Sequence record: DRR723986_3135
Strand: one strand, 5' to 3'
Length of the DNA: 35,544 bases
The translations under genes and the position numbers were made by a program. Each line of letters opens with the position of its first letter. The first letter of the stretch is position 1. The notes under the pieces were generated by a model. The model had not been told where the DNA came from and did no database searches. It saw only the letters and a list, made by a program, of their open reading frames with translations. Below, piece after piece: positions 819 through 35,356 of the stretch.

Positions 819-3800
819 TTAGAAGTCCTGACCAAGCGAAATTAACCAAACCGGCTGAGAAAATTTCTCAAAGTTGTTTTTCCAGGCAACGTCGATTTTG
901 AGTGGAAAACCGAGCAGGAAAAGACGCAGACCAATACCGGTACTCATCAAAAGATCTTGTGGCTCGCGGCTTCCGTTTTGATTAACACGTGAAATCACAA
1001 AATCGTCCGTCCAGGCACCACCCATATCAAAAAAGACGTTTAACAGGAATGGGAAGCGGAACTCAGCATTTGAGACGAACATCTTGGTTCCGTTGCGCTC
1101 GTTAATCTCCCAGCCGCGCAGAGGATATCCGGGCGTCAGGAAGTAGAGATCTTCAGCTGAGTTGTAAGGCAGGCGGCCGTCGCTAAATGTACGGTTGATC
1201 CAGTTCTGGGTACCACCGACAAAAAAGGACTGTGCATCCTCGCCAAAGCTGGCACCACCGGCACCGCGCAGGGCAAGCGTAAAACCTGAGCCCACATCTA
1301 TATAGTGGCGCAGATCGGCCTGAAAGGTAACAAATCCGAGCTGGTTATCCGAGAACTTGGGCGACCCCTGGCCTTCCAGAAATAAACGCGTTCCGCGTGA
1401 AGGGCCGTTAAAACCGAACATGACATTATCGTGTACAAAACGCAATTCCGGCACAAAGTGCATGCGCGAAATTGATTCAACTTCGGGATCTTCAACGTTC
1501 TCAGTGGAGGTGTTTAACCACGTCATACCAAACTCTAAACGATCAAACGTGTTAAACGGAAGGTTGGCACCAACGCCGGCACCAAAGTAGCGAAAACGAT
1601 AGAGCGATTCTTCATTTTCCGTGAAGTCATCCTGGCGAACAAAGCGAGCGGTATGGAAACCACTGAAGTTGTAGTCAATTTGTTCGGGCAGGTAGGAATA
1701 GAGTAAGAAAAAGTCGCTATTGTTTAAGTTTAACAGGAGGTTGGCTGAGAAGAATATCTGATGGTTGCCGAGCATATCACTAAACAACATTTGCGTGGCG
1801 CCCTGGACACCAAAGAAGGTATCGTAACCGGCGTTTGCAAATATGAGGTCTGGTGAAAAAGAAATTTTGTACGGTTGTGATTCGAAGCTGTCATTCACGG
1901 CAAGAACAGGGCCATCACCATCACCTTCTTCCAGGTCGGCGATTGCATCCGGATTAGCCTGTACGGCTTTCTGGCGTGAGAAATCAACGTTAAATTCACC
2001 ATAACCTACCAGAGAGTCGGTAGTGGATTGCGGCGCGTCAGGGTCAACAACAGGATCAAGTTCAGTTTCGCCTGGCTGGGCATCACCAGCATCAATATCG
2101 GCTGCGGCCAGCGGATCTGAGTCTTCGAGTGTACGTTTACGAAACTCGGTTAAGATCGGTTGTTTGTCCGGCAGGTCAAAGGGAAAACGCAGCATGAATA
2201 TATCGAAGCTGCCACCATTCTGTGAAGTAAACAGCAGTTTCCCGCCATCACTGGACAAAGACAAGTGTTCGATACCACTAAGGGCATTTGTTTTGGGATA
2301 TGAATCACCCGAAGCGAGATCCATTATGTAGATATTTCCGATGCCACTTTTGTCCGAAACGTACATCAGTGAGTTACCATCCGGCGACGCAGCAATGGAG
2401 GTTTCGTAGTAGGTAGGGTCAAAGGTGAGGCGCTTCATACCGCGCGTATTGATATCAATTGAATAGATATCTTTCTGATCGCGATCGTAATCCCACATCT
2501 TGAGATCTTCGGAACTTGTTCCGGGTTTGAGATTGTCCCCGCGATTGGAGACAAAGTAAATCTTGTTGCTCTCCGGTCCCCACGCAGGAGCCAGGTCGGT
2601 AAAAATATCTTCAGTCAGATTTTGAACTTCACCGGTAGCAAGCTCACAAATGAAAATGTCGGGCGATTCTTCGATAGAAGCCACAAGTGCGACATTTTTG
2701 CCATCGGGCGACCATTTGGCGGAGGTAATCATCCGAAAGCCAAGGTCAAATTTCTCGACATCACCGCTTTCAACATCAATAATGAAGAGAGCATCATTAC
2801 CACCGGCTTTAGCACTAATTGCAACGCGGCGACCATCGGGATCCCATGAGATACCTGGAGAGAGGATGTTTAGATCCTCAAAGTCACGTCCGCGCGAACC
2901 TTCGATCAGCTGTGTAACGCTGCGCTTGCGCGAGTCCAGATCCATCATGTACAAGCTATAGAAGCCGTCACGAAGCGAAATGAAAGCCATGCGTTCGCCA
3001 TTCGGGGAAATAGCCGGAGCGGTATTTAGAAATGTTCGATTCTTCTCGTGGTCCGTAATGCGCGTGGCAAAGTCCTCAACATCTTCATACTTAACGATGT
3101 CGGGCCAGTAGATTTTTTTCATGTCACGACGCCATTGATCGGAAAAGTCTTCCAGATCCATGCCGAAGGTGCTTTTGAAGGCTCCGTTAACCGTTCCGAT
3201 GCTGCGCACACGATTTGTTAACTCGCCGATTTTGGCGCGCCCGTATTTTTTGGCTACGTACCAGTAGAAAGCCTGACCACCACGGTAGGCAGTATAACCA
3301 CCAAGCTCAAACAGTTCAGGCAGATTTTCGCTGATGCTCAAATCGCGTAGAAACATATCTGTTTTGGTATCAAGGCCTTTTACAGCGCTGTATTCAGCAA
3401 AACCTTCGCTCATCCAGAGTGGATATTCCAGGCGAATGTTATTGGTGATTTGTGATTGGACGGAACCGCCATAGAACATGTCATTAATAAATGCATGAAC
3501 TAACTCGTGGCGAATGAGGAGGCGGAAAAATTCCCACTTGCCTTCAAAGGGCACGACGATACGATTTTTTAGCGGCTCGGTAAATCCGGCAATCCCTTCG
3601 AACAGGAAACCCTGCGTCGTATTGGTCTGCTGGAATTGATTGTGCGAGTTATAAACAACTACTGGAATGCGCTGATTAATGTTGTAATTCACATCGCGTT
3701 GCAATTCGTGCAACATACGCTCCGCTACAACAGCTGTAAAATCAGCAAGGTATTTTCCGCCCTGATGGTAGTAAACATCAAAGTGTTCAGACTGTATAAA

Positions 3801-3920
3801 GCGCCAGTCAAAGTCCTGGTATTGGACTTTGTTTTTGCCGAATTGGGCTTGCGCCGGAAGGAAGGCAAAAGACAGCAAGAACAGCGTTATACCGCAAGCA
3901 GACATCCATCTTCGTTTCAT
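819..3920 (-). CDS. Omp85/BamA-superfamily outer membrane protein with N-terminal HEXXH metallopeptidase-like domain and PD40/TolB-like beta-propeller
   Basis: Start moved from 4010 to the ATG at 3920 (AGAGGAG SD upstream, then signal peptide MKRRW...AQA|Q). HELVH plus WMSEGFAE is a gluzincin-like motif. Repeated SPNG/WDPDG/WSPDG/SPDG PD40-type repeats. C-terminal barrel has LRGW, EFRFP, FFDMG, GIGLR and a terminal Phe. No POTRA domains recognised. Confidence 0.85.
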   Translation of the reverse strand: MKRRWMSACGITLFLLSFAFLPAQAQFGKNKVQYQDFDWRFIQSEHFDVYYHQGGKYLADFTAVVAERMLHELQRDVNYNINQRIPVVVYNSHNQFQQTNTTQGFLFEGIAGFTEPLKNRIVVPFEGKWEFFRLLIRHELVHAFINDMFYGGSVQSQITNNIRLEYPLWMSEGFAEYSAVKGLDTKTDMFLRDLSISENLPELFELGGYTAYRGGQAFYWYVAKKYGRAKIGELTNRVRSIGTVNGAFKSTFGMDLEDFSDQWRRDMKKIYWPDIVKYEDVEDFATRITDHEKNRTFLNTAPAISPNGERMAFISLRDGFYSLYMMDLDSRKRSVTQLIEGSRGRDFEDLNILSPGISWDPDGRRVAISAKAGGNDALFIIDVESGDVEKFDLGFRMITSAKWSPDGKNVALVASIEESPDIFICELATGEVQNLTEDIFTDLAPAWGPESNKIYFVSNRGDNLKPGTSSEDLKMWDYDRDQKDIYSIDINTRGMKRLTFDPTYYETSIAASPDGNSLMYVSDKSGIGNIYIMDLASGDSYPKTNALSGIEHLSLSSDGGKLLFTSQNGGSFDIFMLRFPFDLPDKQPILTEFRKRTLEDSDPLAAADIDAGDAQPGETELDPVVDPDAPQSTTDSLVGYGEFNVDFSRQKAVQANPDAIADLEEGDGDGPVLAVNDSFESQPYKISFSPDLIFANAGYDTFFGVQGATQMLFSDMLGNHQIFFSANLLLNLNNSDFFLLYSYLPEQIDYNFSGFHTARFVRQDDFTENEESLYRFRYFGAGVGANLPFNTFDRLEFGMTWLNTSTENVEDPEVESISRMHFVPELRFVHDNVMFGFNGPSRGTRLFLEGQGSPKFSDNQLGFVTFQADLRHYIDVGSGFTLALRGAGGASFGEDAQSFFVGGTQNWINRTFSDGRLPYNSAEDLYFLTPGYPLRGWEINERNGTKMFVSNAEFRFPFLLNVFFDMGGAWTDDFVISRVNQNGSREPQDLLMSTGIGLRLFLLGFPLKIDVAWKNNFEKFSQPVWLISLGQDF

Positions 3921-4287
3921 CGTCTCTCTCCTCTTTGTAATCCGGCCCTTATACAAGAGCGATAAACACCCAGTCAGCCTTGCTGTTGCACGGGAATGCA
4001 GGATAGACACAATTAAGCGTCATTTGGTTAATATCCGGCATGTACATTGAGTCCTTCGTCAAAAAAGTCGCTTACGTCACATAAATATTTTGCCAGAAGC
4101 GTTTAAGTGTTGGAGGAATTGCCGGAGAATGCGCCTGAACGAATCACACCACAATATGGGAGACACTGGAGTAGGAATTGTTGCACATCGGGAGAGCTGC
4201 GGGGGCCATGCGACTGCGAGGACAACGATTCGGCAGCGTGTCAGCAAGGTGTTGAACAGGCAATGCCGAGATACAATTGTCAGAGGT

Positions 4288-11566: not shown

Positions 11567-13321
11567 TTAGCCACCAGCTCCGCACCCGAGTGCGTCCAGA
11601 TTCTGGCGCGCCGTTTTGTTGCTGGGATTGATCTTAAGAACTTTACCGTAGGCTTTACATGCAGGCTCTACATTCTGCAATGACTGCTCAGCAATGGCAG
11701 TGTAGAGGAAGCCGTACTCGGACTTGTCATTGAATGCAGTCCACTCGACACACACGAATTTTAGTGCATTGAAGTCTTTGGCCTTATAGAGAATTCCGGC
11801 AAGCCCGACGTACGATCCATCGATTTGCTTGAAAATTCGACTCTTGGCAGCTTCGTCCTTGGCAGAATCAACTTGAGACTTAAGAACGGAAATAGTACCC
11901 TTAAAAGCCTCGATAGCTTTGTCCGTACTGTCCATCTCACGATATGTAAACGCAAGGCGTTGGTAGGCAAATGTGTTCGAGGAGTCCAGGCGAATACTCT
12001 CAGAAAGCGCTGTTGCAGCTGAGTCCAGGCTGCCGCGTGAAAAGTTGGATATTCCAATGTAGAAATACACACGCGCCTTGTCTTTGTCAACAAGAGTGTC
12101 ACAGGCATCAAAAACACCGTGAAACACATCAATCGCTTCGTCATAGTCTTCTATTGAACGGAGCACGTTACCAAACATAAGCTGCAGCTTACAGTCGGGC
12201 TTTTGTTTTATCGCCGTTCGGAAATTGTCAATCGCCGTAACCGTATCGCCGGAAAGAATGGCGGAACGACCATAACGCTCATAGTCCCTGATTTCAAAGT
12301 CAATCTTGCCTTTAAGAGCGCTAAACTCATTGGCAGCTTCTTCAAATCGTTTGCCCAGGTAATATGTCCGTGCCAACATCAAAGAAGATTTATCCGCCAC
12401 GGAATCAACTTTCTGGCGCGCCAACTCAAGATAAATGATGGCTGAGTCGATCGCCTTGACTTCGTAGAAAGAGCGGCCGAGCCACCAATATGCAAGCGGG
12501 CGATCAGGACGCAAGACTGTATAGCGCAGAAGCGCACGGGCAGCAGGTGTATACTGTTGCGCCAAATACAGAATCTTCCCTTTTTCCCAAAATGCGGGGG
12601 CGTTGTTTGTATCCTGCTTGGTAACCTGATCCCACTGAATGAGTGACTTTTTAAGCAAATCATTGCTGGCCTGACGATCCCCGGCTTTACCTGCCAGAGC
12701 CCAGTAAGCGCGGGCTAGTTTAATGCGAGGCTCCAGCAGAGAGTCATCGCGCTTAATCGCCTCTTCATAATTTGTTTTGGCCAGGGCGTACACTTTTTGG
12801 GCGTAGTATAAATCACCAAGAGCCACGTAGGTATCGGGAATCTCATCATCAAGGCCTTGCGCTTTGCGAATTGCATGATCCGCAAGAGTAAGTGAGTCCT
12901 GGATAATAAAGATTTCACCACGAGTCAGGTAATTATAGACGTCATCTTCATTTATATCAAACGCCTCGTCCATCAATTCGTGGGCATCCTCGAATTGATC
13001 AAGAAGCGCGTGTGTCCGTGCTGTTTTACGCAGCACAAACAAATCTTCATCGTCAATGTTCAGCGCGCGTTTGTAGTAGATAAGTGCCGAATCGGCCTTT
13101 TCCAACTGTACAAAAGCATCACCTGTGAGTGTTAGAATTTCCTTGTTACGCGGCGAATCCTTGGTGGCTGCCACCAAGTAATTAGACGCTCCGAGGAAGT
13201 CGCGCACTTTCAGGTATTCCTGCGCTTTGTCAAAATTTGACTGGGACAGAGCCGGCGCAACATTTAGTGCAACCATCAAAACTGCCACCACAGCCATTAC
13301 AGATCCTTGCATGATCCGCAT
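11567..13321 (-). CDS. Exported tetratricopeptide-repeat protein
   Basis: Signal peptide ending ALS|Q; TPR-pattern helices (LG..Y......A...Y..A) over the whole length; GAGG SD upstream. Confidence 0.88.
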   Translation of the reverse strand: MRIMQGSVMAVVAVLMVALNVAPALSQSNFDKAQEYLKVRDFLGASNYLVAATKDSPRNKEILTLTGDAFVQLEKADSALIYYKRALNIDDEDLFVLRKTARTHALLDQFEDAHELMDEAFDINEDDVYNYLTRGEIFIIQDSLTLADHAIRKAQGLDDEIPDTYVALGDLYYAQKVYALAKTNYEEAIKRDDSLLEPRIKLARAYWALAGKAGDRQASNDLLKKSLIQWDQVTKQDTNNAPAFWEKGKILYLAQQYTPAARALLRYTVLRPDRPLAYWWLGRSFYEVKAIDSAIIYLELARQKVDSVADKSSLMLARTYYLGKRFEEAANEFSALKGKIDFEIRDYERYGRSAILSGDTVTAIDNFRTAIKQKPDCKLQLMFGNVLRSIEDYDEAIDVFHGVFDACDTLVDKDKARVYFYIGISNFSRGSLDSAATALSESIRLDSSNTFAYQRLAFTYREMDSTDKAIEAFKGTISVLKSQVDSAKDEAAKSRIFKQIDGSYVGLAGILYKAKDFNALKFVCVEWTAFNDKSEYGFLYTAIAEQSLQNVEPACKAYGKVLKINPSNKTARQNLDALGCGAGG

Positions 13322-13346
13322 TTCCTCATTTAATGCTACAGATATT

Positions 13347-14300
13347 CTATTGAGTGACTTTTAAGTTAAAACGTGCGTGTTCAGGTACAATTCCCGCTTC
13401 CTTAAAGTGCACCATCACTTCCGCATCACGAGCCAGGTACACAAATGTGCCCCAGACTACATCCTGTGTCATGCCTTTGAGCAACCAGCCACGAATGCTG
13501 ACAGGATACGGATACATTTCCATTACAATTCTGGATTGATGCACGAGTCGCGGTGCGATGCGTACGCCATCCTCATTGTCAAAACCTATCGGAATCATGC
13601 GCAAGTCAGGATGCTTAACAACCGTTGACAGCATGGAAATCCCGATAACATTAGCCGAATTGCGCACAAGCGCAAGTACCGAATCCGTCGTTCCGGCAAA
13701 ATGGAAGCGCGCTTTTGGCGCCTCCATGTCGGTAATTTTCAGTAGTACATTGCCATACACAGAAGAGTTAACATCGGTGCAGACAAAATGTGGTTCAGCC
13801 GTAAGTTGTGGGAAGGTTTGCTGAAGGACCGGGGAGGAACTCAGCATTTTCTTACGAAGTAAAGTGTGAGAGAGCGTGTCAATTGGATAGTCTTCGCGCA
13901 CAAAAAATACTAGCGCGTCTTTAGCAAATATGTATTCGGTGTATCGCTCTACATCAAAACTCTTACGAAGTGAGTCTTCATCTGGAAGGTAGTCACGAGC
14001 AATTATGAGGCCGGGAGTATTGCCGGACATCAATTGCTGCATACCGGTGCGAGCATCTTTGCTCTCAACCGTAATCGTAGCATGCTCATATTCAGCATCA
14101 TGCATTTGAATTGCCGGCATGACAATGTCATATACTTCCGCATCACAGACGATGGTAGCTTCGCCTACCGTCGAGCCGGCGATTGGCTTGACTTCTTTGG
14201 CGTCTTTAGCCTTTTCCTCTGCATTGCAGGCAAGAATAAAGCCCATGCAAGTCAGCAGGCATAAACGCGACGCGAATTGCAACACTGGTTTACTCATCAC
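13347..14300 (-). CDS. PstS-like periplasmic binding-fold lipoprotein, ligand unknown
   Basis: Lipobox ILA|C (Cys25). FAKDALVFFV, V.....N.IG and YPY segments resemble the PstS/PBP-like family, but the GS(S/T)T and SGT phosphate motifs are not recognisable. ATGA overlap with the upstream small gene. Confidence 0.7.
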   Translation of the reverse strand: MMSKPVLQFASRLCLLTCMGFILACNAEEKAKDAKEVKPIAGSTVGEATIVCDAEVYDIVMPAIQMHDAEYEHATITVESKDARTGMQQLMSGNTPGLIIARDYLPDEDSLRKSFDVERYTEYIFAKDALVFFVREDYPIDTLSHTLLRKKMLSSSPVLQQTFPQLTAEPHFVCTDVNSSVYGNVLLKITDMEAPKARFHFAGTTDSVLALVRNSANVIGISMLSTVVKHPDLRMIPIGFDNEDGVRIAPRLVHQSRIVMEMYPYPVSIRGWLLKGMTQDVVWGTFVYLARDAEVMVHFKEAGIVPEHARFNLKVTQ

Positions 14301-14512
14301 TCCTCCATTTCCTGTTCGCGTTGGTACTTGCGATAGTTGCCGTAGAAGTTCACTACCCGGTAAATTCCGAACAGGATAAAAACGACGCCGGCGGTTCGTA
14401 GCAGTGTTACGTTGCCAACATAAAACTTGTCGGCATTTAACAACAGAAACAGCCCTACCAGTGATACCATTAAGCGAATGGTAATGTTAATTACGAGCCA
14501 GAAGATGTTCAT
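14297..14512 (-). CDS. Small two-TM membrane protein, unknown function
   Basis: 71 aa with two hydrophobic segments, FGIYR motif and charged tail; the 4-nt ATGA overlap with the next gene supports a real CDS. Confidence 0.75.
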   Translation of the reverse strand: MNIFWLVINITIRLMVSLVGLFLLLNADKFYVGNVTLLRTAGVVFILFGIYRVVNFYGNYRKYQREQEMEE

Positions 14513-14585
14513 CGATGGTAAGCCGGGAATCGCGGGGCTTCGGAAGAGAATCTACGTGGGCTTCCCCTAGACGTCTGGAAACGGA

Positions 14586-14621
14586 GATGGCAGACAGCTA
14601 TTCAGATAACTACCTGCCATC
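14586..14621 (-). other. Intergenic RNA hairpin downstream of the distal tonB
   Basis: Minus-strand RNA forms a continuous 16-bp stem with three G-U pairs and a 4-nt loop (CUGA); the plus strand would have three A-C mismatches. No U tract. Confidence 0.75.
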
Positions 14622-14640
14622 CATGTTTTTGCCGTATGTA

Positions 14641-15429
14641 TTAATTGCGAAGCTTAAATGAGATGGGAATACTTACCCAACATTGAATAGGCTGCTGATT
14701 CTGGATCGCCGGTGTGAATACCGACTCCATGACGGCAGCAACCGCTGCTTCGTTAAATACTTCGTTATCCGACTGTTGAATGATGTGCTTTTTAGGCTTG
14801 CCATCAACATCAACAAGTACACGAATAACAACACTGCCTTCCAGACCAGCTCGTTGAGCGATAGCCGGATACTTCACTTTACGCTGAAGCTCACCAAGGT
14901 CAATGTATGGCTCTTTCTCAACCGGAATAAATTCGAAAGCGTCTGGTTCTTCAACAACTTCGGGAGCGATGTCAAGCGTCACCTCACCAAAGCCGTCGTT
15001 ATCACCAAAGCCATTGAAATCTTCGTCACCACCTTCAGCAGTAGCGCGTGCGATCTCATCGACATTGGCAAAATCCTGAATGTCTTCAGGGATCATAGCA
15101 TCCGGAACAGGAACCGGAGTACCCGCGCGTGCGGCCGGGCCGGAAGCAATCACTACCTCGGATGGCGGCGGTGGCATTGGCGGCGGCGCATCATTTGCAG
15201 AAGGCGGCGGCGGTAAGTTCGAAAGCTTCAGCTTAACAGGAGGTGCGATGAACGCAACTTCATTTGCCTTGGCAACCGATTCAGAAATGATATACCCACC
15301 GACGAATACGCAGAAGATACTCAGCGCTATCAAGAAGGACCGCCAGGTCGAGTTCTTAATGTACTGCTTCAACTCGGAAGCGCCGTAGGCTCCCTTCGTT
15401 TCCTTGTTTGTGGCCTTAGGAGTTGCCAT
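14641..15429 (-). CDS. tonB: TonB-family energy transducer (distal paralogue)
   Basis: AYGASELK N-terminal motif, single TM, Pro-rich linker (PPPPS...PPPMPPPP), TonB C-terminal domain (VKYP..A...GLEG.V.....VD.DG...FTPA...IPISF). Confidence 0.88.
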   Translation of the reverse strand: MATPKATNKETKGAYGASELKQYIKNSTWRSFLIALSIFCVFVGGYIISESVAKANEVAFIAPPVKLKLSNLPPPPSANDAPPPMPPPPSEVVIASGPAARAGTPVPVPDAMIPEDIQDFANVDEIARATAEGGDEDFNGFGDNDGFGEVTLDIAPEVVEEPDAFEFIPVEKEPYIDLGELQRKVKYPAIAQRAGLEGSVVIRVLVDVDGKPKKHIIQQSDNEVFNEAAVAAVMESVFTPAIQNQQPIQCWVSIPISFKLRN

Positions 15430-15480
15430 AAACGCGAATTCTCCAGTTATCTATAATTGTTCCTATAATTCGGAACCGAT

Positions 15481-15505
15481 TCTTGCGGCTGTATTTTCCG
15501 CAAGA
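15481..15505. other. Intergenic hairpin between the two tonB genes
   Basis: TCTTGCGG (15481-15488)/CCGCAAGA (15498-15505), right after the stop at 15507. Confidence 0.55.
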
Positions 15506-15506
15506 G

Positions 15507-16349
15507 TCAGCGCAAACGGAAGCTAATCGGGATACTTATCCAACACGCTACCGGACTTCCGCCCAGCATCGCCGGAGTAACTCGAATCTCACGTACCGCA
15601 GCAACTGCATTTTCAATGAATACGTCGTTATCTGCTGTCAGAACAACAACGCGCCGAATCGATCCATCTGTATCAACCAGCGCGCGGACAACGACTGTAC
15701 CTTCCAATTCGCTTACAATAGCGATATGTGGAAAAATTACTCGACTTTGAAGATCTTTTTGATCAACAATCGGTTCCTGGTCGTAGGCCACGAACTGATT
15801 TGGGTCATTAATGATGTTCGGTTCCGGCTTGGATATTTCTTTGCCGTTACCGTTACCGCCGCCAACTACTGTCGTTGCAGTTGTTGCAGGCGAATCCGGA
15901 TCACCAAAACCATTGCCGTTACCAAGTCCGTACTCGTCAAACTCACTGTCAAAATGCGGATCAAATTCGCTGTCAAGAACTGTATCTTCGATTTTTTCAA
16001 AGACGTCGTCTTTAACAGGCGTAATGATCTGAGCGTCTTCCACGTCGACAGTCTTTTTGGCGACCTGGGGCTCCACTTCGGGACGTACCGGTTCGTCAGG
16101 GCGTGTATCTCCGCCGCCGTCAAATGCACCGGGCGGCAGAATTTCAAAGGGTGGAAGTGAGCCGGCTCCATTCAAATATGGAGGGTTGTCCGGCACCATC
16201 CGATTTAGCATCATTGCAATGATTCCCAAGGAACCAACTAACATTAATGCCATTAAAAAACTCTTGACTGTACGGATAGACGCAGTACGTCTAATTTCCC
16301 TCGCTCCGTATGCGAGCTGAAAAGTGCGCTTTACAATAGCAGCAGTCAT
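15507..16349 (-). CDS. tonB: TonB-family energy transducer (proximal paralogue)
   Basis: AYGAREIR motif, single TM, acidic/Gly-rich linker, TonB C-terminal domain ending CWISIPISFRLR; ATGA overlap with exbD. Confidence 0.85.
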   Translation of the reverse strand: MTAAIVKRTFQLAYGAREIRRTASIRTVKSFLMALMLVGSLGIIAMMLNRMVPDNPPYLNGAGSLPPFEILPPGAFDGGGDTRPDEPVRPEVEPQVAKKTVDVEDAQIITPVKDDVFEKIEDTVLDSEFDPHFDSEFDEYGLGNGNGFGDPDSPATTATTVVGGGNGNGKEISKPEPNIINDPNQFVAYDQEPIVDQKDLQSRVIFPHIAIVSELEGTVVVRALVDTDGSIRRVVVLTADNDVFIENAVAAVREIRVTPAMLGGSPVACWISIPISFRLR

Positions 16350-16900
16350 AATCCCTCAATTTCGGCTTTGTCTTCTTCCGACATCGGCACGAGGGCAAAT
16401 TTACGTTCTCGCTCATCGCCATCGGCCACGATTTGGTTCGTGATCTCGACTTCGGCAAGGTTTAACTCGTCGAGGACGGTAATCACTATTCCGTATTCGA
16501 CATCCTCCGAGACTTTGAGCGCCGTAATCAGGCTGTTGCGTTTTTCAAGGTTTTTGTTGATGGCCAGAGTTCGCAACTCTTCCATCTCAACGCCGAGGGC
16601 TGCTTCCGCACCAAACTTGTAGAAAAGTTTGCCGTCTGCACGCACCAGCAGCGTCATCAGTTCAGACTCCTTCACGTCTACTTGTTCGTTGCGCTCAGGT
16701 GGAATGGACATCTCCATCACCTGCGGCTGAGCCATCGTAGTCGTAAACATGAAAAACGTCAGAAGTAGAAACGCGATATCCACCAGCGGTGTCATATCGA
16801 GCACAAAACCTACACGCTTCTTTTTCTTACGCACGGTGGCGAGTGATCCGCGTTTCTGCTTACCACCACCATCACCACCTAGTGTTCCACCGCCTGCCAT
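16346..16900 (-). CDS. exbD: ExbD/TolR family protein (second copy)
   Basis: DMTPLVDIAFLLLTFFM with the essential TM Asp; Gly/Lys-rich N-terminal extension; YG.VI.VLDEL C-terminal motif. Confidence 0.93.
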   Translation of the reverse strand: MAGGGTLGGDGGGKQKRGSLATVRKKKKRVGFVLDMTPLVDIAFLLLTFFMFTTTMAQPQVMEMSIPPERNEQVDVKESELMTLLVRADGKLFYKFGAEAALGVEMEELRTLAINKNLEKRNSLITALKVSEDVEYGIVITVLDELNLAEVEITNQIVADGDERERKFALVPMSEEDKAEIEGL

Positions 16901-17019
16901 GGCGTTTTCTCCCGGAGAATTGAAGGATAACGGAATAACTGGAAGACAAAACCAAACTGCAATGGGTTACTGCAGGGCAAATCTTTGCCCCAAATCAGAC
17001 AACCTCTGACTGTGCAGGG

Positions 17020-17535
17020 TTAACTACCGCGTTTATCCGTTACGAAATTAAATTCGGTTGCGTTATACCGCTGCATAACGTTCATCAGGTCTTCAATGTA
17101 TTGATAGCGGACAACTTTGTCGGCATCAATGGCGAACTGCGTTTTGTGATTTACTGCTCGAGTGTTGCGAATCAGTTCTTCAAGCAATTCAACCGACTGC
17201 ACTTTAACAAGTGCTTTGCCACGTTGTTCATCCGTCATCCCTTCAACACGAGCGTAAACTGCATCACGCGTGGTCTCATTGGTCAGCGTATAGTAGTAAG
17301 CTGTGTCGCTGTAAACGGTGTCAATACCGATTTTGATCATCGCAACATTCGTTTCAGGAATTTTGGATGTATCGGCAGATGCAACGGGGCGTTGAATCGT
17401 GAATTTCTGTTCGGAATCCGCTTCAGATTTAAACTTCGCAGTGAACATGAAGAAGGTCAACAATAGAAATGCAATGTCAACCAGAGGCGTCATGTCCAGC
17501 ACAAAACCAACGCGTTTTTTCTTGATTTTAGGCAT
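17020..17535 (-). CDS. exbD: ExbD/TolR family protein (first copy)
   Basis: DMTPLVDIAFLLLTFFM; C-terminal IDAD..V.Y..I..LM..MQ......FNFVT; GGAGG SD. Confidence 0.93.
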   Translation of the reverse strand: MPKIKKKRVGFVLDMTPLVDIAFLLLTFFMFTAKFKSEADSEQKFTIQRPVASADTSKIPETNVAMIKIGIDTVYSDTAYYYTLTNETTRDAVYARVEGMTDEQRGKALVKVQSVELLEELIRNTRAVNHKTQFAIDADKVVRYQYIEDLMNVMQRYNATEFNFVTDKRGS

Positions 17536-17555
17536 ACTTCATCCTCCAATCTGAC

Positions 17556-17598
17556 GAGTCGGAAAGACGAAGAGCCTGTAAGCTCTTCGTCTCCGCTC
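17556..17598. other. Intergenic hairpin between exbB and exbD
   Basis: Perfect 11-bp stem AGACGAAGAGC (17565-17575)/GCTCTTCGTCT (17582-17592), extendable with bulges. No U tract. Confidence 0.75.
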
Positions 17599-17605
17599 AA
17601 AACTA

Positions 17606-18388
17606 TTAGTCTTTGATTTTGACTGAGAGGATTTCAGTAACGCTCAGAATCGCTTCGTCGATCATATAGATGAAGTTGTCGACTTTAGTCGTGAAGTAGT
17701 TATACCCCACAATCGCGATTACAGCACCAATCAGACCACCAGCAGTGTTGTAGAGTGCCTCGGAAATACCGATCGACAGCTGCGTAGCAGAAACTGTACC
17801 ACCTTTACCGAGAGCGGCAAAGGCGCGAATCATACCAACTGTAGTTCCAAGCAGACCAATCATAGTCGCAATCGAAGCAACGGTTGAGAGGATTACCATG
17901 TTCTTCTCAAGTAGCGGAGTCTCAAGGTTGGTAGCCTCATCGATCGCGCGCTTGACTTCCGTCATTTTCTTTTCGCGATCAAGCTCACTGTCTGACTTGA
18001 CGGTTTGGAAGGTCTCCAGGCCGGCGCGGATGATGTTTGCCATGCTACCGCGTTGGGTATGGCAAGATTTCAACGCACCGTCAATGTCACCTTTCTGCAA
18101 CTGAACAGAAACGTTCTTAACAAAGACTTCGAGTTTGCCTTTGCCGCGTGCTTTGCTAATTGAGAATGCACGCTCAATAAGGAATGTCGTTGCAACCAGG
18201 ATAAAGGTGATAAGCAATGAAACCAGAATACCGCCGGTGTAGATCATCCCGAGAACATTGCCATCGAGTGGTACGTGACGTACATCTGGATCTGAGAAGT
18301 TGGCAGGATTCCCCATCACAAATTCCCAGAACAGATAGGAGACAACCAACGCAAGGATAATGACGATCGCATTAAAAGCGTTCTTCAT
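17606..18388 (-). CDS. exbB: MotA/TolQ/ExbB proton-channel protein
   Basis: GLLGTTVGMIRAF and GISEALYNTAGGL. Start moved from 18472 to the ATG at 18388 (GGAG SD), which removes the overlap with the STAS gene. Confidence 0.93.
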   Translation of the reverse strand: MKNAFNAIVIILALVVSYLFWEFVMGNPANFSDPDVRHVPLDGNVLGMIYTGGILVSLLITFILVATTFLIERAFSISKARGKGKLEVFVKNVSVQLQKGDIDGALKSCHTQRGSMANIIRAGLETFQTVKSDSELDREKKMTEVKRAIDEATNLETPLLEKNMVILSTVASIATMIGLLGTTVGMIRAFAALGKGGTVSATQLSIGISEALYNTAGGLIGAVIAIVGYNYFTTKVDNFIYMIDEAILSVTEILSVKIKD

Positions 18389-18422
18389 GGAAACACACTC
18401 CAAATAGAATGAAAGTTTATGA

Positions 18423-18770
18423 TTATTTGAAAATTTTGCTCTTGGCTTCTTCGACTGTGTCGTAAATCTCAAACACGAGTGTAAGCTTCGTGATTATGAA
18501 GATGTTTTCGATGTTGTCGCTAATATTACATAGCACAACACGCCCAGCACGTTTTGTAAAACGCTCATGTGCGGAGATCAGCACACCTAAGGCAGTCGAG
18601 TTGATATAAGTAACTTTGGCGAGGTCGACAATCGCAATGTTGTCGTCTTGTTCGGCCACACCGCTGAACAGCTGGCGAAGTCTGTCGGTTTCATCACCGC
18701 CAATAAACTGGCCACGAAGATTGAAGAGCGTAAAGTCCCCACAGTCTTCGGTTTTGATCTGGTCAAACAT
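18423..18770 (-). CDS. STAS-domain anti-sigma-factor antagonist (SpoIIAA/RsbV-like)
   Basis: 115 aa; VDLAKVTYINSTALGVL with the phospho-acceptor Ser position; IF.ITKL..VFEIY.TVEEA. Confidence 0.9.
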   Translation of the reverse strand: MFDQIKTEDCGDFTLFNLRGQFIGGDETDRLRQLFSGVAEQDDNIAIVDLAKVTYINSTALGVLISAHERFTKRAGRVVLCNISDNIENIFIITKLTLVFEIYDTVEEAKSKIFK

Positions 18771-18801
18771 TAAATTCCCTTGCGATGTGATTTGGAAGCT
18801 A

Positions 18802-18809
18802 CAAAGTTA
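18802..18809 (-). promoter_or_regulatory. Putative -7 promoter element for the STAS-exb-ton cluster
   Basis: TAACTTTG on the minus strand, 31 nt before the STAS ATG and followed by TAG as in the yceD promoter. No good -33 TTTG. Confidence 0.5.
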
Positions 18810-33379: not shown

Positions 33380-35356
33380 ATGTCATTGCGCATACTCATT
33401 GGAATTTCAACGTGTCTGCTAGTTGCTGCTGTTGCTACCAGCAGTGCACAAGGTCTTGTAACGGTTCAGTTTGAAGGCAAAGTCACCGCTCTGACGGCAA
33501 ACCAACAAGTATTCAAGATATTTATGTATGATGAAGTCAGCGGCAGCCTGACATTTGATCCCTTCTCTAACCTTCAGTCGACTTCTTCTGAACCATCAAT
33601 GGACAGAAATAGCTATGACCTGAAAACCGGCAGCAACGCTCAGTTTATCGTGAGTATTGGTGAGCACCTGTTCGCTTCCAGGCCGGCAAATCAGATGGCT
33701 GACGAAGATGGCTTTTGGTGTGACTTTCAACGGGAAAAAGTAACGGCAAACAACAATTCACCGACCTGTCGTGTGAAGTTCCAAAATTCCGTCGCAGATC
33801 AAATGTCGCAGACCTTAGCTCCGGCATTTGAGATGAATTTTGAACGGCAAAACTGTCACAGACACGGATATGTAAACGAGCTGGCGAGCTTCACTCAAAC
33901 TACGGATTGGGACAAAGCGACCATCAAAATTCTTGTCCGCGAAGACGGCCACTACGCTGGATTCGTAGCCGAAATCACCTCGTTCAAATTTGTTGATGTT
34001 AACTCCCCATCAATTAGCGGGACGATGTTTATGGACGAAAACTCCAACTGTGAAGCTGATGACGCCCACAATTTGGGCAGACGTGTGATCAAGATCACAC
34101 CTGGACCTTTCCATGCCATCGTCAATTCCGCTGGAGAATATTCGATTCAACTGCCCAGCGGCACATACGAAGCACACATTGCTGAGCGCCCACTCTGGAA
34201 GTTCACCTGTGTAGATGGCCCGACTCAAATCAGGCTGGGAAATGACAATCAATCGGTCGAAGCGCATTACGCTTTTGAGCCCACGCAAATGCTGGAAGCA
34301 CTTGATGTTTCGCTGGCGGCGGGCCGGGCGCGACCGGGCTTTCCCATGGAATATTGTATTCGCCTCGAAAATGTCGGGACACTGCCCTACAGCGGCAGCA
34401 TACGTTTTGAGCACGACGCCTTGCTCACAGACGTTTCAAGCGCACCGGAGGCCGATTGGTATTCCGCGCCGACAGCTGAGTGGCATATCGCTGAACTGCC
34501 AATTGGCACAGTGCAGGTCATTAAAATCAGCACAATGGTCCCTGCAGATGAAACATTACTTGGGACGATGCTGTGCTCTCGGGTAATGAGTGAAGTTGAT
34601 CGTAAATCTGAGGATGAAATTCTGAGCGCCGCGTCCGACGAAATCTGTACGGAAATCCGCGGTGCCTACGACCCAAATGACATTCAGGTATTCAGTGGCA
34701 TTCAGAATGCGGACGGTCCAATCAGTCAGGACAACTTAACACTGACCTATTTAATTCGCTTTCAAAATGAAGGCAATGAGGATGCTCTCACCGTGCGGGT
34801 CGTGGATGCTCTCAGTCAGTTTCACAAGATTGAATCACTGCAGTTTGGCGCCGCGAGCCACCCAGCCGAAATCAGTTTCAACAACGAGGGTGAACTGGTC
34901 TGGACGTTTAATGATATCAACCTGCCACCAAAATCCGTTGACGAAAATGCCAGCCAGGGCTTTGTGAAGTTTAAGGTTAAACTCAAAGACGAACTTGCCA
35001 TCGGCACTGAAATTCCCAACAGCGCAGCTATCCACTTTGACTTTAACAGCCCAGTGATTACCAATACTGTCGTCAGCCGCATTACAAACACCACAACGTC
35101 CGTGGGCTCTGAGCTGGACGCGAGCCAGGTTAAGATTTACCCGAATCCGAGTTCGGACAGGCTACGAGTGCGGCTGGACCAGCCTGGCTTAGCAACTCTT
35201 TCGATTCGCAATCTGCTGGGACAAACCGTATTTTCGGAGTCAAGCGCTTCAGCGGTACATGATATAGACTTGAGTCAAATTCCGCCAGGCAGTTACTTTC
35301 TGAGAGTTGAAACCGAGCAAGGTTCGTTAATTGAACAATTTGCAATTCAGCGTTAA
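33380..35356 (+). CDS. Secreted protein with T9SS type-A C-terminal sorting domain and Ig-like (SdrD-B/DUF11/DPND-type) modules
   Basis: Signal peptide ending SSA|Q; ISG..F.D.N.NC; Y.I...N.GT; AYDPND, LTY.IRFQN.G, A.I.FDFN.PV.TN; CTD with IYPNP, NLLGQ, IDLS....G.Y; GGAG SD. Confidence 0.88.
   Translation: MSLRILIGISTCLLVAAVATSSAQGLVTVQFEGKVTALTANQQVFKIFMYDEVSGSLTFDPFSNLQSTSSEPSMDRNSYDLKTGSNAQFIVSIGEHLFASRPANQMADEDGFWCDFQREKVTANNNSPTCRVKFQNSVADQMSQTLAPAFEMNFERQNCHRHGYVNELASFTQTTDWDKATIKILVREDGHYAGFVAEITSFKFVDVNSPSISGTMFMDENSNCEADDAHNLGRRVIKITPGPFHAIVNSAGEYSIQLPSGTYEAHIAERPLWKFTCVDGPTQIRLGNDNQSVEAHYAFEPTQMLEALDVSLAAGRARPGFPMEYCIRLENVGTLPYSGSIRFEHDALLTDVSSAPEADWYSAPTAEWHIAELPIGTVQVIKISTMVPADETLLGTMLCSRVMSEVDRKSEDEILSAASDEICTEIRGAYDPNDIQVFSGIQNADGPISQDNLTLTYLIRFQNEGNEDALTVRVVDALSQFHKIESLQFGAASHPAEISFNNEGELVWTFNDINLPPKSVDENASQGFVKFKVKLKDELAIGTEIPNSAAIHFDFNSPVITNTVVSRITNTTTSVGSELDASQVKIYPNPSSDRLRVRLDQPGLATLSIRNLLGQTVFSESSASAVHDIDLSQIPPGSYFLRVETEQGSLIEQFAIQR

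Follow-up and report, generated by a model that had tools for sequence, protein, structure and literature searches.

A nine-gene ExbB-ExbD-TonB cluster with conserved accessory genes, probably the general Ton energizer of a Bacteroidota-group bacterium

On its minus strand, the 35,544-nt stretch DRR723986_3135 (the window, meaning the whole stretch of DNA that was analyzed) carries nine tandem genes from position 18770 down to 11567. In order, they encode a STAS-domain protein, an ExbB-type channel subunit, two ExbD proteins (ExbD_a and ExbD_b), two TonB proteins (TonB_a and TonB_b), a small membrane protein, a lipoprotein with the fold of the phosphate-binding protein PstS, and a long tetratricopeptide repeat (TPR) protein. 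We consider it likely that this cluster is the general (housekeeping) Ton energizer of its organism in an extended, Bacteroidota-type form, with the receptors that it serves encoded elsewhere. There is nothing unusual about the motor core, and the order of the genes can be seen in annotation already published for Riemerella and Bacteroides thetaiotaomicron; what calls for attention is the set of conserved add-on genes. Ton motors in Bacteroidota power the uptake of glycans, vitamins, heme, and siderophores, and the phylum is central to gut and environmental carbon turnover. To our knowledge, what is understood of the Ton mechanism comes nearly all from the three-protein system of Escherichia coli.

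Genome-wide searches were performed in five relatives (G001 to G005), the closest included. Matches to the MotA/ExbB family numbered 3, 3, 3, 3, and 2, one per genome being this cluster, and all nine matches outside it carried MotA_N, with five adjoining flgK/flgL and four paired with MotB. ExbD matches numbered 3, 3, 2, 2, and 2, two per genome being the cluster's own. The same genomes gave 22, 22, 13, 26, and 11 matches to the Plug domain of receptors and 7, 8, 6, 8, and 2 matches to TonB_C, while TolB_N was found in none of the five by a search whose controls, E. coli and Caulobacter, were positive. Apart from the cluster, these relatives have no ExbB/ExbD-type motor, and they lack a separate Tol motor; since all other MotA-family matches are flagellar and 11 to 26 receptor matches are present, the cluster is the only motor available to drive those receptors. 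It is common for the genes of TonB-dependent receptors to lie at a distance from tonB. A prediction made earlier from the sequence of the window (the original prediction) had described the cluster as receptor-less and as a dedicated machine rather than one for nutrient uptake. The first description does not survive the Plug matches found elsewhere in genomes where this is the only motor, and the second finds no support in view of that result and of the hemin and iron phenotype of a similar locus in Riemerella.

In Riemerella anatipestifer, the TonB2 system consists of exbB2-exbD21-exbD22-tonB2 with leuS upstream, and the tonB2 mutant is reported to grow poorly on hemin and on iron-chelated medium (PMC4446302). 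The likeness of this locus to the cluster is drawn from the paper's description and from locus L088 of our survey, which has the same leuS context and a TPR gene after the lipoprotein gene. No STAS gene and no second TonB is mentioned where the paper describes the Riemerella locus, and L088 likewise gave no STAS match; the genes downstream of tonB2 were not part of that study (PMC4446302).

The accessory genes are found together with the motor far more often than chance would allow. When reference genomes were searched with an alignment of the lipoprotein, 15 close loci were obtained, 14 of which keep ExbB-ExbD-ExbD-TonB-lipoprotein-TPR; in the fifteenth, an Ignavibacteria record, the lipoprotein was the sole match at the thresholds used. 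Across these 15 loci, STAS was present in 10, the small membrane gene was detectable in 11, and a second full-length TonB was present in 5, with flanking prmC in 10 and yceD-rpmF-plsX-fabH in 8. The position beside fatty-acid genes had been taken in the original prediction as a hint of function, but as just 8 of the 15 closest loci have this neighborhood and the more distant loci do not, it is uninformative in this respect.

Of 301 genomes sampled across the phylum, 162 had a match to the lipoprotein profile at an E value of ≤1e-5. Forty of the profile matches were sampled over the full range of E values and the window proteins were searched against each using tblastn, from which it was found that ExbB and two ExbD genes lie just upstream on the same strand in 28; near the remaining 12, none of the window's genes was found. 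Adjacency to the motor depended on the strength of the lipoprotein match, holding for 24 of 27 with an E value of ≤2.4e-19 and for 4 of the 13 weaker ones. A TPR protein of 462 to 615 amino acids follows the lipoprotein gene in 25 of the 28 motor-adjacent loci (18 identified by tblastn and 7 more by Pfam); of the other three, two have an open reading frame (ORF) of the right size, outside the Pfam scan, and one is at a contig end. At all nine distant loci examined by Pfam, the gene after the lipoprotein gene encoded a TPR protein. In 25 of the 28 motor-adjacent loci, a small ORF with hydrophobic helices separates TonB from the lipoprotein gene, and STAS precedes ExbB in 17 of these 28 distant loci. 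The order exbB-exbD-exbD-tonB-pstS-like-TPR, which the original prediction had given as recurring in Bacteroidota, is thereby borne out, and the accessory genes do keep company with the motor.

Viewed from the motor side, an ExbB match at an E value of ≤1e-20 was present in 271 of the 301 genomes. Among the matches listed, a lipoprotein match lies within 2.6 to 6.1 kb of ExbB for at least 69 of the 150 best ExbB matches, and by rank of ExbB this applies to at least 39 of the top 50, at least 25 of the next 50, and at least 5 of the last 50. For 35 of the 150, the lipoprotein match is on another contig, several of these being at contig ends, and a further 32 belong to genomes without a lipoprotein match among the matches listed. 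These motor-side proximity counts are lower bounds, the lipoprotein profile having been built from close relatives.

In eight genomes (G188, G164, G272, G044, G144, G068, G200, and G064), a weaker lipoprotein-profile match lies 18.9 to 21.2 kb from the ExbB ortholog, and this near-constant spacing suggests that one clade has conserved an arrangement of larger extent. In the relative G004 (contig C10, approximately 12400 to 14950; locus L012), extra TonB_C ORFs are located between TonB and the lipoprotein gene, including a 401-amino-acid frame with three TonB_C matches, which suggests that the locus can take up additional TonB genes at this position.

The domain assignments made in the original prediction hold in Pfam and NCBIfam, which place eight of the nine cluster genes, the small membrane protein being the one without a family. 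ExbB scores 101.2 bits against PF01618 (cut-off, 22.9) and has the channel domain of a Ton system. Against NCBIfam it reaches 102 bits with the TolQ model (TIGR02796; cut-off, 221) and 60.6 bits with the ExbB model, which is also below its cut-off, while the two ExbD proteins score 39 and 48 bits with the TolR model (TIGR02801; cut-off, 127). No TolA family was present among the Pfam and NCBIfam matches of the cluster proteins.

Both ExbD proteins have the conserved membrane aspartate, in the sequence LVDIAF, that is found in ExbD of Ton systems. They also share a 28-residue membrane stretch with 100% identity (window positions 17441 to 17523 and 16743 to 16825), outside of which BLASTP aligns nothing between them. 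At the DNA level the shared stretch reaches only 77% identity over 83 nt; gene conversion was therefore rejected as its source, and selection on the protein would be what keeps the two helices alike. Identical helices are as expected for two different subunits that would occupy one ExbB pore, and from these sequences the two probably pair as a heterodimer whose periplasmic heads differ.

Both TonB proteins match PF03544 and have the hydrophobic N-terminal segment and PPPP stretches of Ton-system TonB proteins; they share 33% identity with each other. TonB_b is the conserved TonB of the locus, with 87% identity in the closest locus (L001) and a counterpart in 14 of the 15 close loci, whereas TonB_a is fast evolving, sharing 41 to 44% identity with its counterparts in L001 and L002, and is absent from most loci. 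TonB_b carries the YP motif, a name that we take from a preprint (10.1101/2025.11.18.689179).

The lipoprotein has the lipobox LAC with a near-invariant cysteine. A profile of its family (29 sequences) matches solved PstS proteins at an E value of 2.8e-30, and the best Foldseek matches of its AlphaFold2 model (mean pLDDT of 90.8) are the PstS structures 4omb and 4gd5; across 4omb, 4gd5, and 1twy, TM-scores range from 0.61 to 0.69 on the query and from 0.73 to 0.83 on the target. Judged by profile and predicted model, the lipoprotein is a true relative of PstS that keeps the type II periplasmic binding fold. The motifs G-S-(S/T)-T, S-R, and S-G-T are presumably those that hold the phosphate-ligand residues of PstS. 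In the lipoprotein, the first of these, on strand 1, has given way to (C/V)-D-E-x, and A-R-x takes the place of the second Ser/Gly motif, leaving only the arginine of S/A-R and an N-S-S/G remnant of the anion-site motifs. Because most of the ligand motifs are replaced, PstS-like phosphate binding by the lipoprotein is unlikely. Thus, the fold of PstS is present, but the lipoprotein has Asp-Glu in place of the Ser/Thr ligand motifs, is lipid anchored, and has no PstCAB partner in the window. A TonB-box-like motif in its N-terminal linker was considered and dropped, as the conserved T-x-G directly precedes the first strand of the fold.

The TPR protein has a signal peptide ending ALS|Q. It scores 34.8 bits with the CpoB/YbgF model (TIGR02795; cut-off, 90.1), and its profile gave only generic TPR matches among solved structures, mostly to eukaryotic or designed proteins. 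Near its C terminus (11567 to 11660), two cysteines are the majority residues in a 31-sequence consensus (A-C-x-x-Y-x-K-V-L ... L-x-C), and these might form a disulfide.

The family alignment of the small membrane protein contains an invariant G20 and R52, and an L(Y/F)GxYR motif is shared by its members. No Pfam family was matched, its members giving only scattered weak matches, and the nearest Atlas clusters are annotated as "hypothetical protein" of Bacteroidota.

The STAS protein scores 59.9 bits with TIGR00377, above the cut-off of 53.45, and its sequence matches in the PDB are anti-sigma antagonists. In an alignment of the window with 24 loci (L002, L012, and L073 were left out), all 25 sequences have the serine of Y-I-N-S-T, which occupies the position phosphorylated in SpoIIAA-type proteins, and all have G-G-x-E, with GGxET in 24 of 25. 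It thus resembles the antagonists SpoIIAA and RsbV in its STAS fold and its conserved serine, but differs from them in having no adjoining anti-sigma kinase, in heading a membrane-motor operon, and in its own invariant G-G-x-E motif. RsbW-like kinases and SpoIIE-type phosphatases are encoded elsewhere in the genome in four of the five relatives, none of them beside STAS; the fifth relative gave no STAS or SpoIIE match genome-wide, and its locus is also without the STAS gene. That the presence of STAS tracks that of an RsbW/SpoIIE network is a lead only (n = 5). Among the papers searched, none was found that studied the four add-on genes (those for STAS, the small membrane protein, the lipoprotein, and the TPR protein) or described what they do, in agreement with the original prediction, which had named no established function for the accessory genes.

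Ton motors have the architecture ExbB5-ExbD2-TonB and are driven by proton flow. From this and the families identified, an ExbB pentamer in the organism of the window would surround a pair of ExbD subunits, which would be a heterodimer of paralogs with the same membrane helix and different periplasmic domains. Proton flow by way of the ExbD aspartates would then drive TonB_b and the extra paralog TonB_a, and the TonB C-terminal domain would pull on outer-membrane receptors, encoded elsewhere, by their TonB boxes. More tentatively, the small two-helix protein might be an extra (fourth) inner-membrane subunit, and the lipoprotein and the long TPR protein could form a periplasmic module that positions or gates TonB and ExbD relative to the wall or outer membrane. 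It is also conceivable, though speculative, that the STAS protein, through a serine that can be phosphorylated, couples the motor on its cytoplasmic side to a partner-switching network of kinases and phosphatases. ExbB, ExbD, and TonB are the same three families as in E. coli, and the motor architecture and the pulling of TonB boxes are presumably alike. The cluster differs from the E. coli system in having two different ExbD proteins, one or two TonB proteins, an extra N-terminal hydrophobic segment in ExbB, and four extra conserved genes, and scores against the equivalog models of NCBIfam are far below their cut-offs.

Several observations weigh against a general energizer. Motor-side adjacency of the lipoprotein falls to 5 of 50 (a lower bound) among the more distant ExbB matches, and the NCBIfam scores favor TolQ/TolR over ExbB/ExbD, although all are below their cut-offs. 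The finding of a sole motor comes from relatives, the closest of which, G001, is 70 to 92% identical to the window in most cluster proteins and 44% in TonB_a. The tie between the add-on proteins and the motor is one of gene linkage. Further points come from B. thetaiotaomicron, which encodes 11 TonB, 5 ExbB, and 8 ExbD homologs and depends on TonB4/TonB6 for glycan uptake (PMC10350073). The locus BT2664-68 of this species is alike by annotation, with ExbB (BT2668), ExbD (BT2666-7), TonB5 (BT2665), and a "substrate-binding domain-containing protein" (PMC10350073, PMC10434189), and TonB5 homologs are present in almost all Bacteroides examined (PMC10350073). This annotation-matched tonB5 locus is not the one demonstrated to drive glycan uptake, and in the available text slower growth is reported only for the tonB4 and tonB7 deletions (PMC10350073); in addition, BT2664-68 stand at −3.1- to −2.7-fold in an iron-stimulon table, which we read as lower expression under iron scarcity (PMC10434189). 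From the growth and iron-stimulon data, the module may have a narrower or more special job where other motors exist. B. thetaiotaomicron has several Ton systems, whereas in the relatives studied here the cluster is the only motor.

A different account is that the lone ExbB/ExbD motor has two purposes and also does Tol-like envelope work, the TPR protein corresponding to CpoB and the lipoprotein to TolB/Pal, with one TonB paralog or one ExbD periplasmic domain serving the envelope arm. The motors are homologous, and the order of motor, transducer, periplasmic protein or lipoprotein, and TPR protein parallels tolQ-tolR-tolA-tolB-pal-cpoB, with both operons ending in periplasmic or lipoprotein components and a TPR protein; the CpoB that stands last in tol-pal loci is in most cases a TPR lipoprotein (PMC12204202). 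The same source describes Bacteroidetes as having no identifiable tol-pal loci (PMC12204202), in keeping with the lack of TolB_N in all five relatives. The higher NCBIfam scores for TolQ/TolR than for ExbB/ExbD and an ExbD pair with an identical membrane helix and unalignable periplasmic domains also fit a second function, as does a preprint in which loss of a Porphyromonas gingivalis TonB, from a different type of locus, is linked to an altered cell surface and not to iron homeostasis (10.1101/2025.11.18.689179). That preprint reports surface-remodeling phenotypes for this TonB (PG0785) and speculates on overlap between Ton and Tol; as PG0785 groups with the B. fragilis TonB3/B. thetaiotaomicron TonB4 type, its locus was not used as an ortholog here (10.1101/2025.11.18.689179). 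However, every Tol model scores below its cut-off (at best 102 against 221 for TolQ, 48 against 127 for TolR, and 34.8 against 90.1 for CpoB), so that neither TolQ/TolR nor CpoB is identified, and neither TolB nor Pal was found (Pal being sought in the window). Both transducers match TonB_C with no TolA domain, the locus is without an OmpA-like wall-binding lipoprotein, the lipoprotein has the fold of PstS and not a beta-propeller, the TPR protein is approximately twice the length of the CpoB model, and most loci have a single TonB. We regard this account as unlikely, though far from negligible. A fuller version is decidedly unlikely, namely that in lineages lacking Tol-Pal one motor would serve both uptake and the envelope by means of a seven-to-nine-part complex with a STAS on/off switch. 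Its parts would be an ExbD heterodimer, a small fourth membrane subunit, a lipoprotein-TPR arm replacing TolB/Pal/CpoB, and a STAS phospho-switch, a composition to which we assign the same slight weight. The likeness to the AglR-AglQ-AglS motor of Myxococcus is one of subunit count alone (one TolQ-like and two TolR-like); here the locus includes TonB proteins, and the relatives have flagellar genes.

It is decidedly unlikely that the lipoprotein and TPR genes are mere passengers of the operon, for example binding a periplasmic anion or other solute, with no physical or functional link to the motor. The clear descent of the lipoprotein from PstS, its retention of a conserved arginine and one serine of the anion site, and a tie to the motor that is known from gene linkage would all suit such a role. 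Against it, no pstCAB or other permease gene lies beside the lipoprotein gene in the window, acidic residues stand where PstS has G-S-(S/T)-T, the lipoprotein gene begins before the stop codon of the small membrane gene is complete, and very divergent genomes with differing flanks still have the lipoprotein gene next to the motor. Least probable, and very much so, is the dedicated trans-envelope machine of the original prediction that would serve no TonB-dependent receptors: it could draw on the absence of a receptor gene from the window, the tight conservation of the accessory genes, and the slowed growth, on the sugars and glycans tested, of B. thetaiotaomicron tonB4/tonB7 but not, in the available text, tonB5 deletions (PMC10350073), but it would leave the 11 to 26 receptor matches of the relatives without a motor and is at odds with the iron and hemin phenotype of Riemerella tonB2 (PMC4446302). 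The common separation of receptor genes from tonB also speaks against it.

A general Ton energizer with receptors elsewhere is therefore the reading that we prefer. Across the phylum, one type of Ton motor is almost always accompanied by a small membrane protein, a remodeled PstS-fold lipoprotein, and a long TPR protein; in many lineages a STAS switch protein is there as well, and in some the cluster is the only such motor. The add-ons are testable candidates for missing Ton subunits or regulators and also bear on outer-membrane upkeep in bacteria without Tol-Pal, and loci of the orthologous type are present in tractable species.

Table 1. Cluster genes and the promoter-like element in the window, with position, strand, and supporting match or remark
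Promoter-like element TAACTTTG	18802..18809	-	Bacteroidota-type -7 element; 31 nt before STAS ATG
STAS-domain protein (SpoIIAA/RsbV-like), 115 aa, cluster gene 1	18423..18770	-	PF01740, E 2.6e-15
ExbB/TolQ-type proton-channel subunit, 260 aa	17606..18388	-	PF01618, E 4.6e-29
ExbD_a, 171 aa	17020..17535	-	PF02472, E 9.7e-16
ExbD_b, 184 aa	16346..16900	-	PF02472, E 7.7e-21
TonB_a, 280 aa	15507..16349	-	PF03544, E 1.5e-15
TonB_b, 262 aa	14641..15429	-	PF03544, E 7.7e-20
Small two-helix inner-membrane protein (predicted), 71 aa	14297..14512	-	No known family
PstS-fold lipoprotein, 317 aa	13347..14300	-	PF12849, E 2.5e-4, below Pfam cut-off if scanned alone
Secreted TPR protein (predicted), 584 aa	11567..13321	-	TPR families over residues 30-570

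The coordinates of the cluster are listed in Table 1. From STAS to TPR, the intergenic gaps are 34, 70, 119, −4, 77, 128, −4 or −1, and 25 nt. The start of ExbB was placed at the ATG at 18388, 34 nt past the STAS stop, and not at the TTG at 18472, because relatives align from residue 1. All nine closely spaced and co-oriented genes of the original prediction were confirmed, on the minus strand, but of its two ATGA overlaps only that between ExbD_b and TonB_a stands; the junction between the stop of the small membrane gene and the start of the lipoprotein gene is GTGATG, which allows either a GTGA or a TGATG overlap.

The TAnnTTTG element that had been placed in front of the cluster is present, and a match to this motif lies 37 to 65 nt 5′ of STAS in 11 of 27 related loci, where chance would be expected to give approximately 1 of 27 (a rough estimate from motif length). 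Its recurrence fits STAS being the first gene of a transcription unit. Over the whole window the motif shows no enrichment, with 17 matches against 20.6 ± 4.4 expected. One further match, TATATTTG, is 12 nt ahead of yceD. Another, TAGTTTTG (17598 to 17605), lies right past the ExbB stop and 62 nt before ExbD_a, and may be an internal promoter or a chance occurrence. A scan of the window with Rfam gave no match, and a scan for sigma-70 promoters and terminators gave results at or below the level of shuffled sequence.

Other genes in the window are rnc, fabF, fabG, fabD, fabH, plsX, rpmF, yceD, prmC, carB, pgpA, tpiA, and ftsK, together with genes for an aspartate/ornithine carbamoyltransferase and a CDP-alcohol phosphatidyltransferase, an LptC-like gene, and a KdsA-like gene; carB was identified by likeness in relatives, outside the family scan of the window, which covered ORFs of ≥110 amino acids. 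In that scan with Pfam, no Plug/TonB-dependent receptor, TolB_N, Pal-like, or PstCAB family was found in the window, as the original prediction had said of receptor, tolB, pal, and pstCAB genes. A 1,063-amino-acid protein (819 to 4010) has TolB-like PD40 beta-propeller repeats fused to a Peptidase_MA_2 domain; this gene is not tolB. A 658-amino-acid protein (33380 to 35356) combines DUF7619 with a C-terminal sorting domain of type IX secretion, and from this domain the organism probably has a type IX secretion system.

The 15 close loci carry the names Candidatus Kapaibacterium/Kapabacteria, Chlorobiota, Ignavibacteria, or Bacteroidota, and the two closest (L001 and L002) share 70 to 92% protein identity with the window cluster, TonB_a excepted. 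From these similarities, we infer that the organism of the window belongs to a Kapabacteria-like branch of the Bacteroidota/Chlorobiota group. Loci L002 and L005, from MAG records and close to the Kapabacteria-type loci, are labeled "uncultured Hyphomicrobiales bacterium," a label that is probably wrong. In all five relatives searched genome-wide (loci L016 and L018 to L021), a second MotA-like gene with MotA_N is located right after flgK-flgL with no adjoining MotB. Four of the five also have a separate MotA-MotB pair. It is unusual for a stator subunit without its partner to adjoin hook-associated genes.

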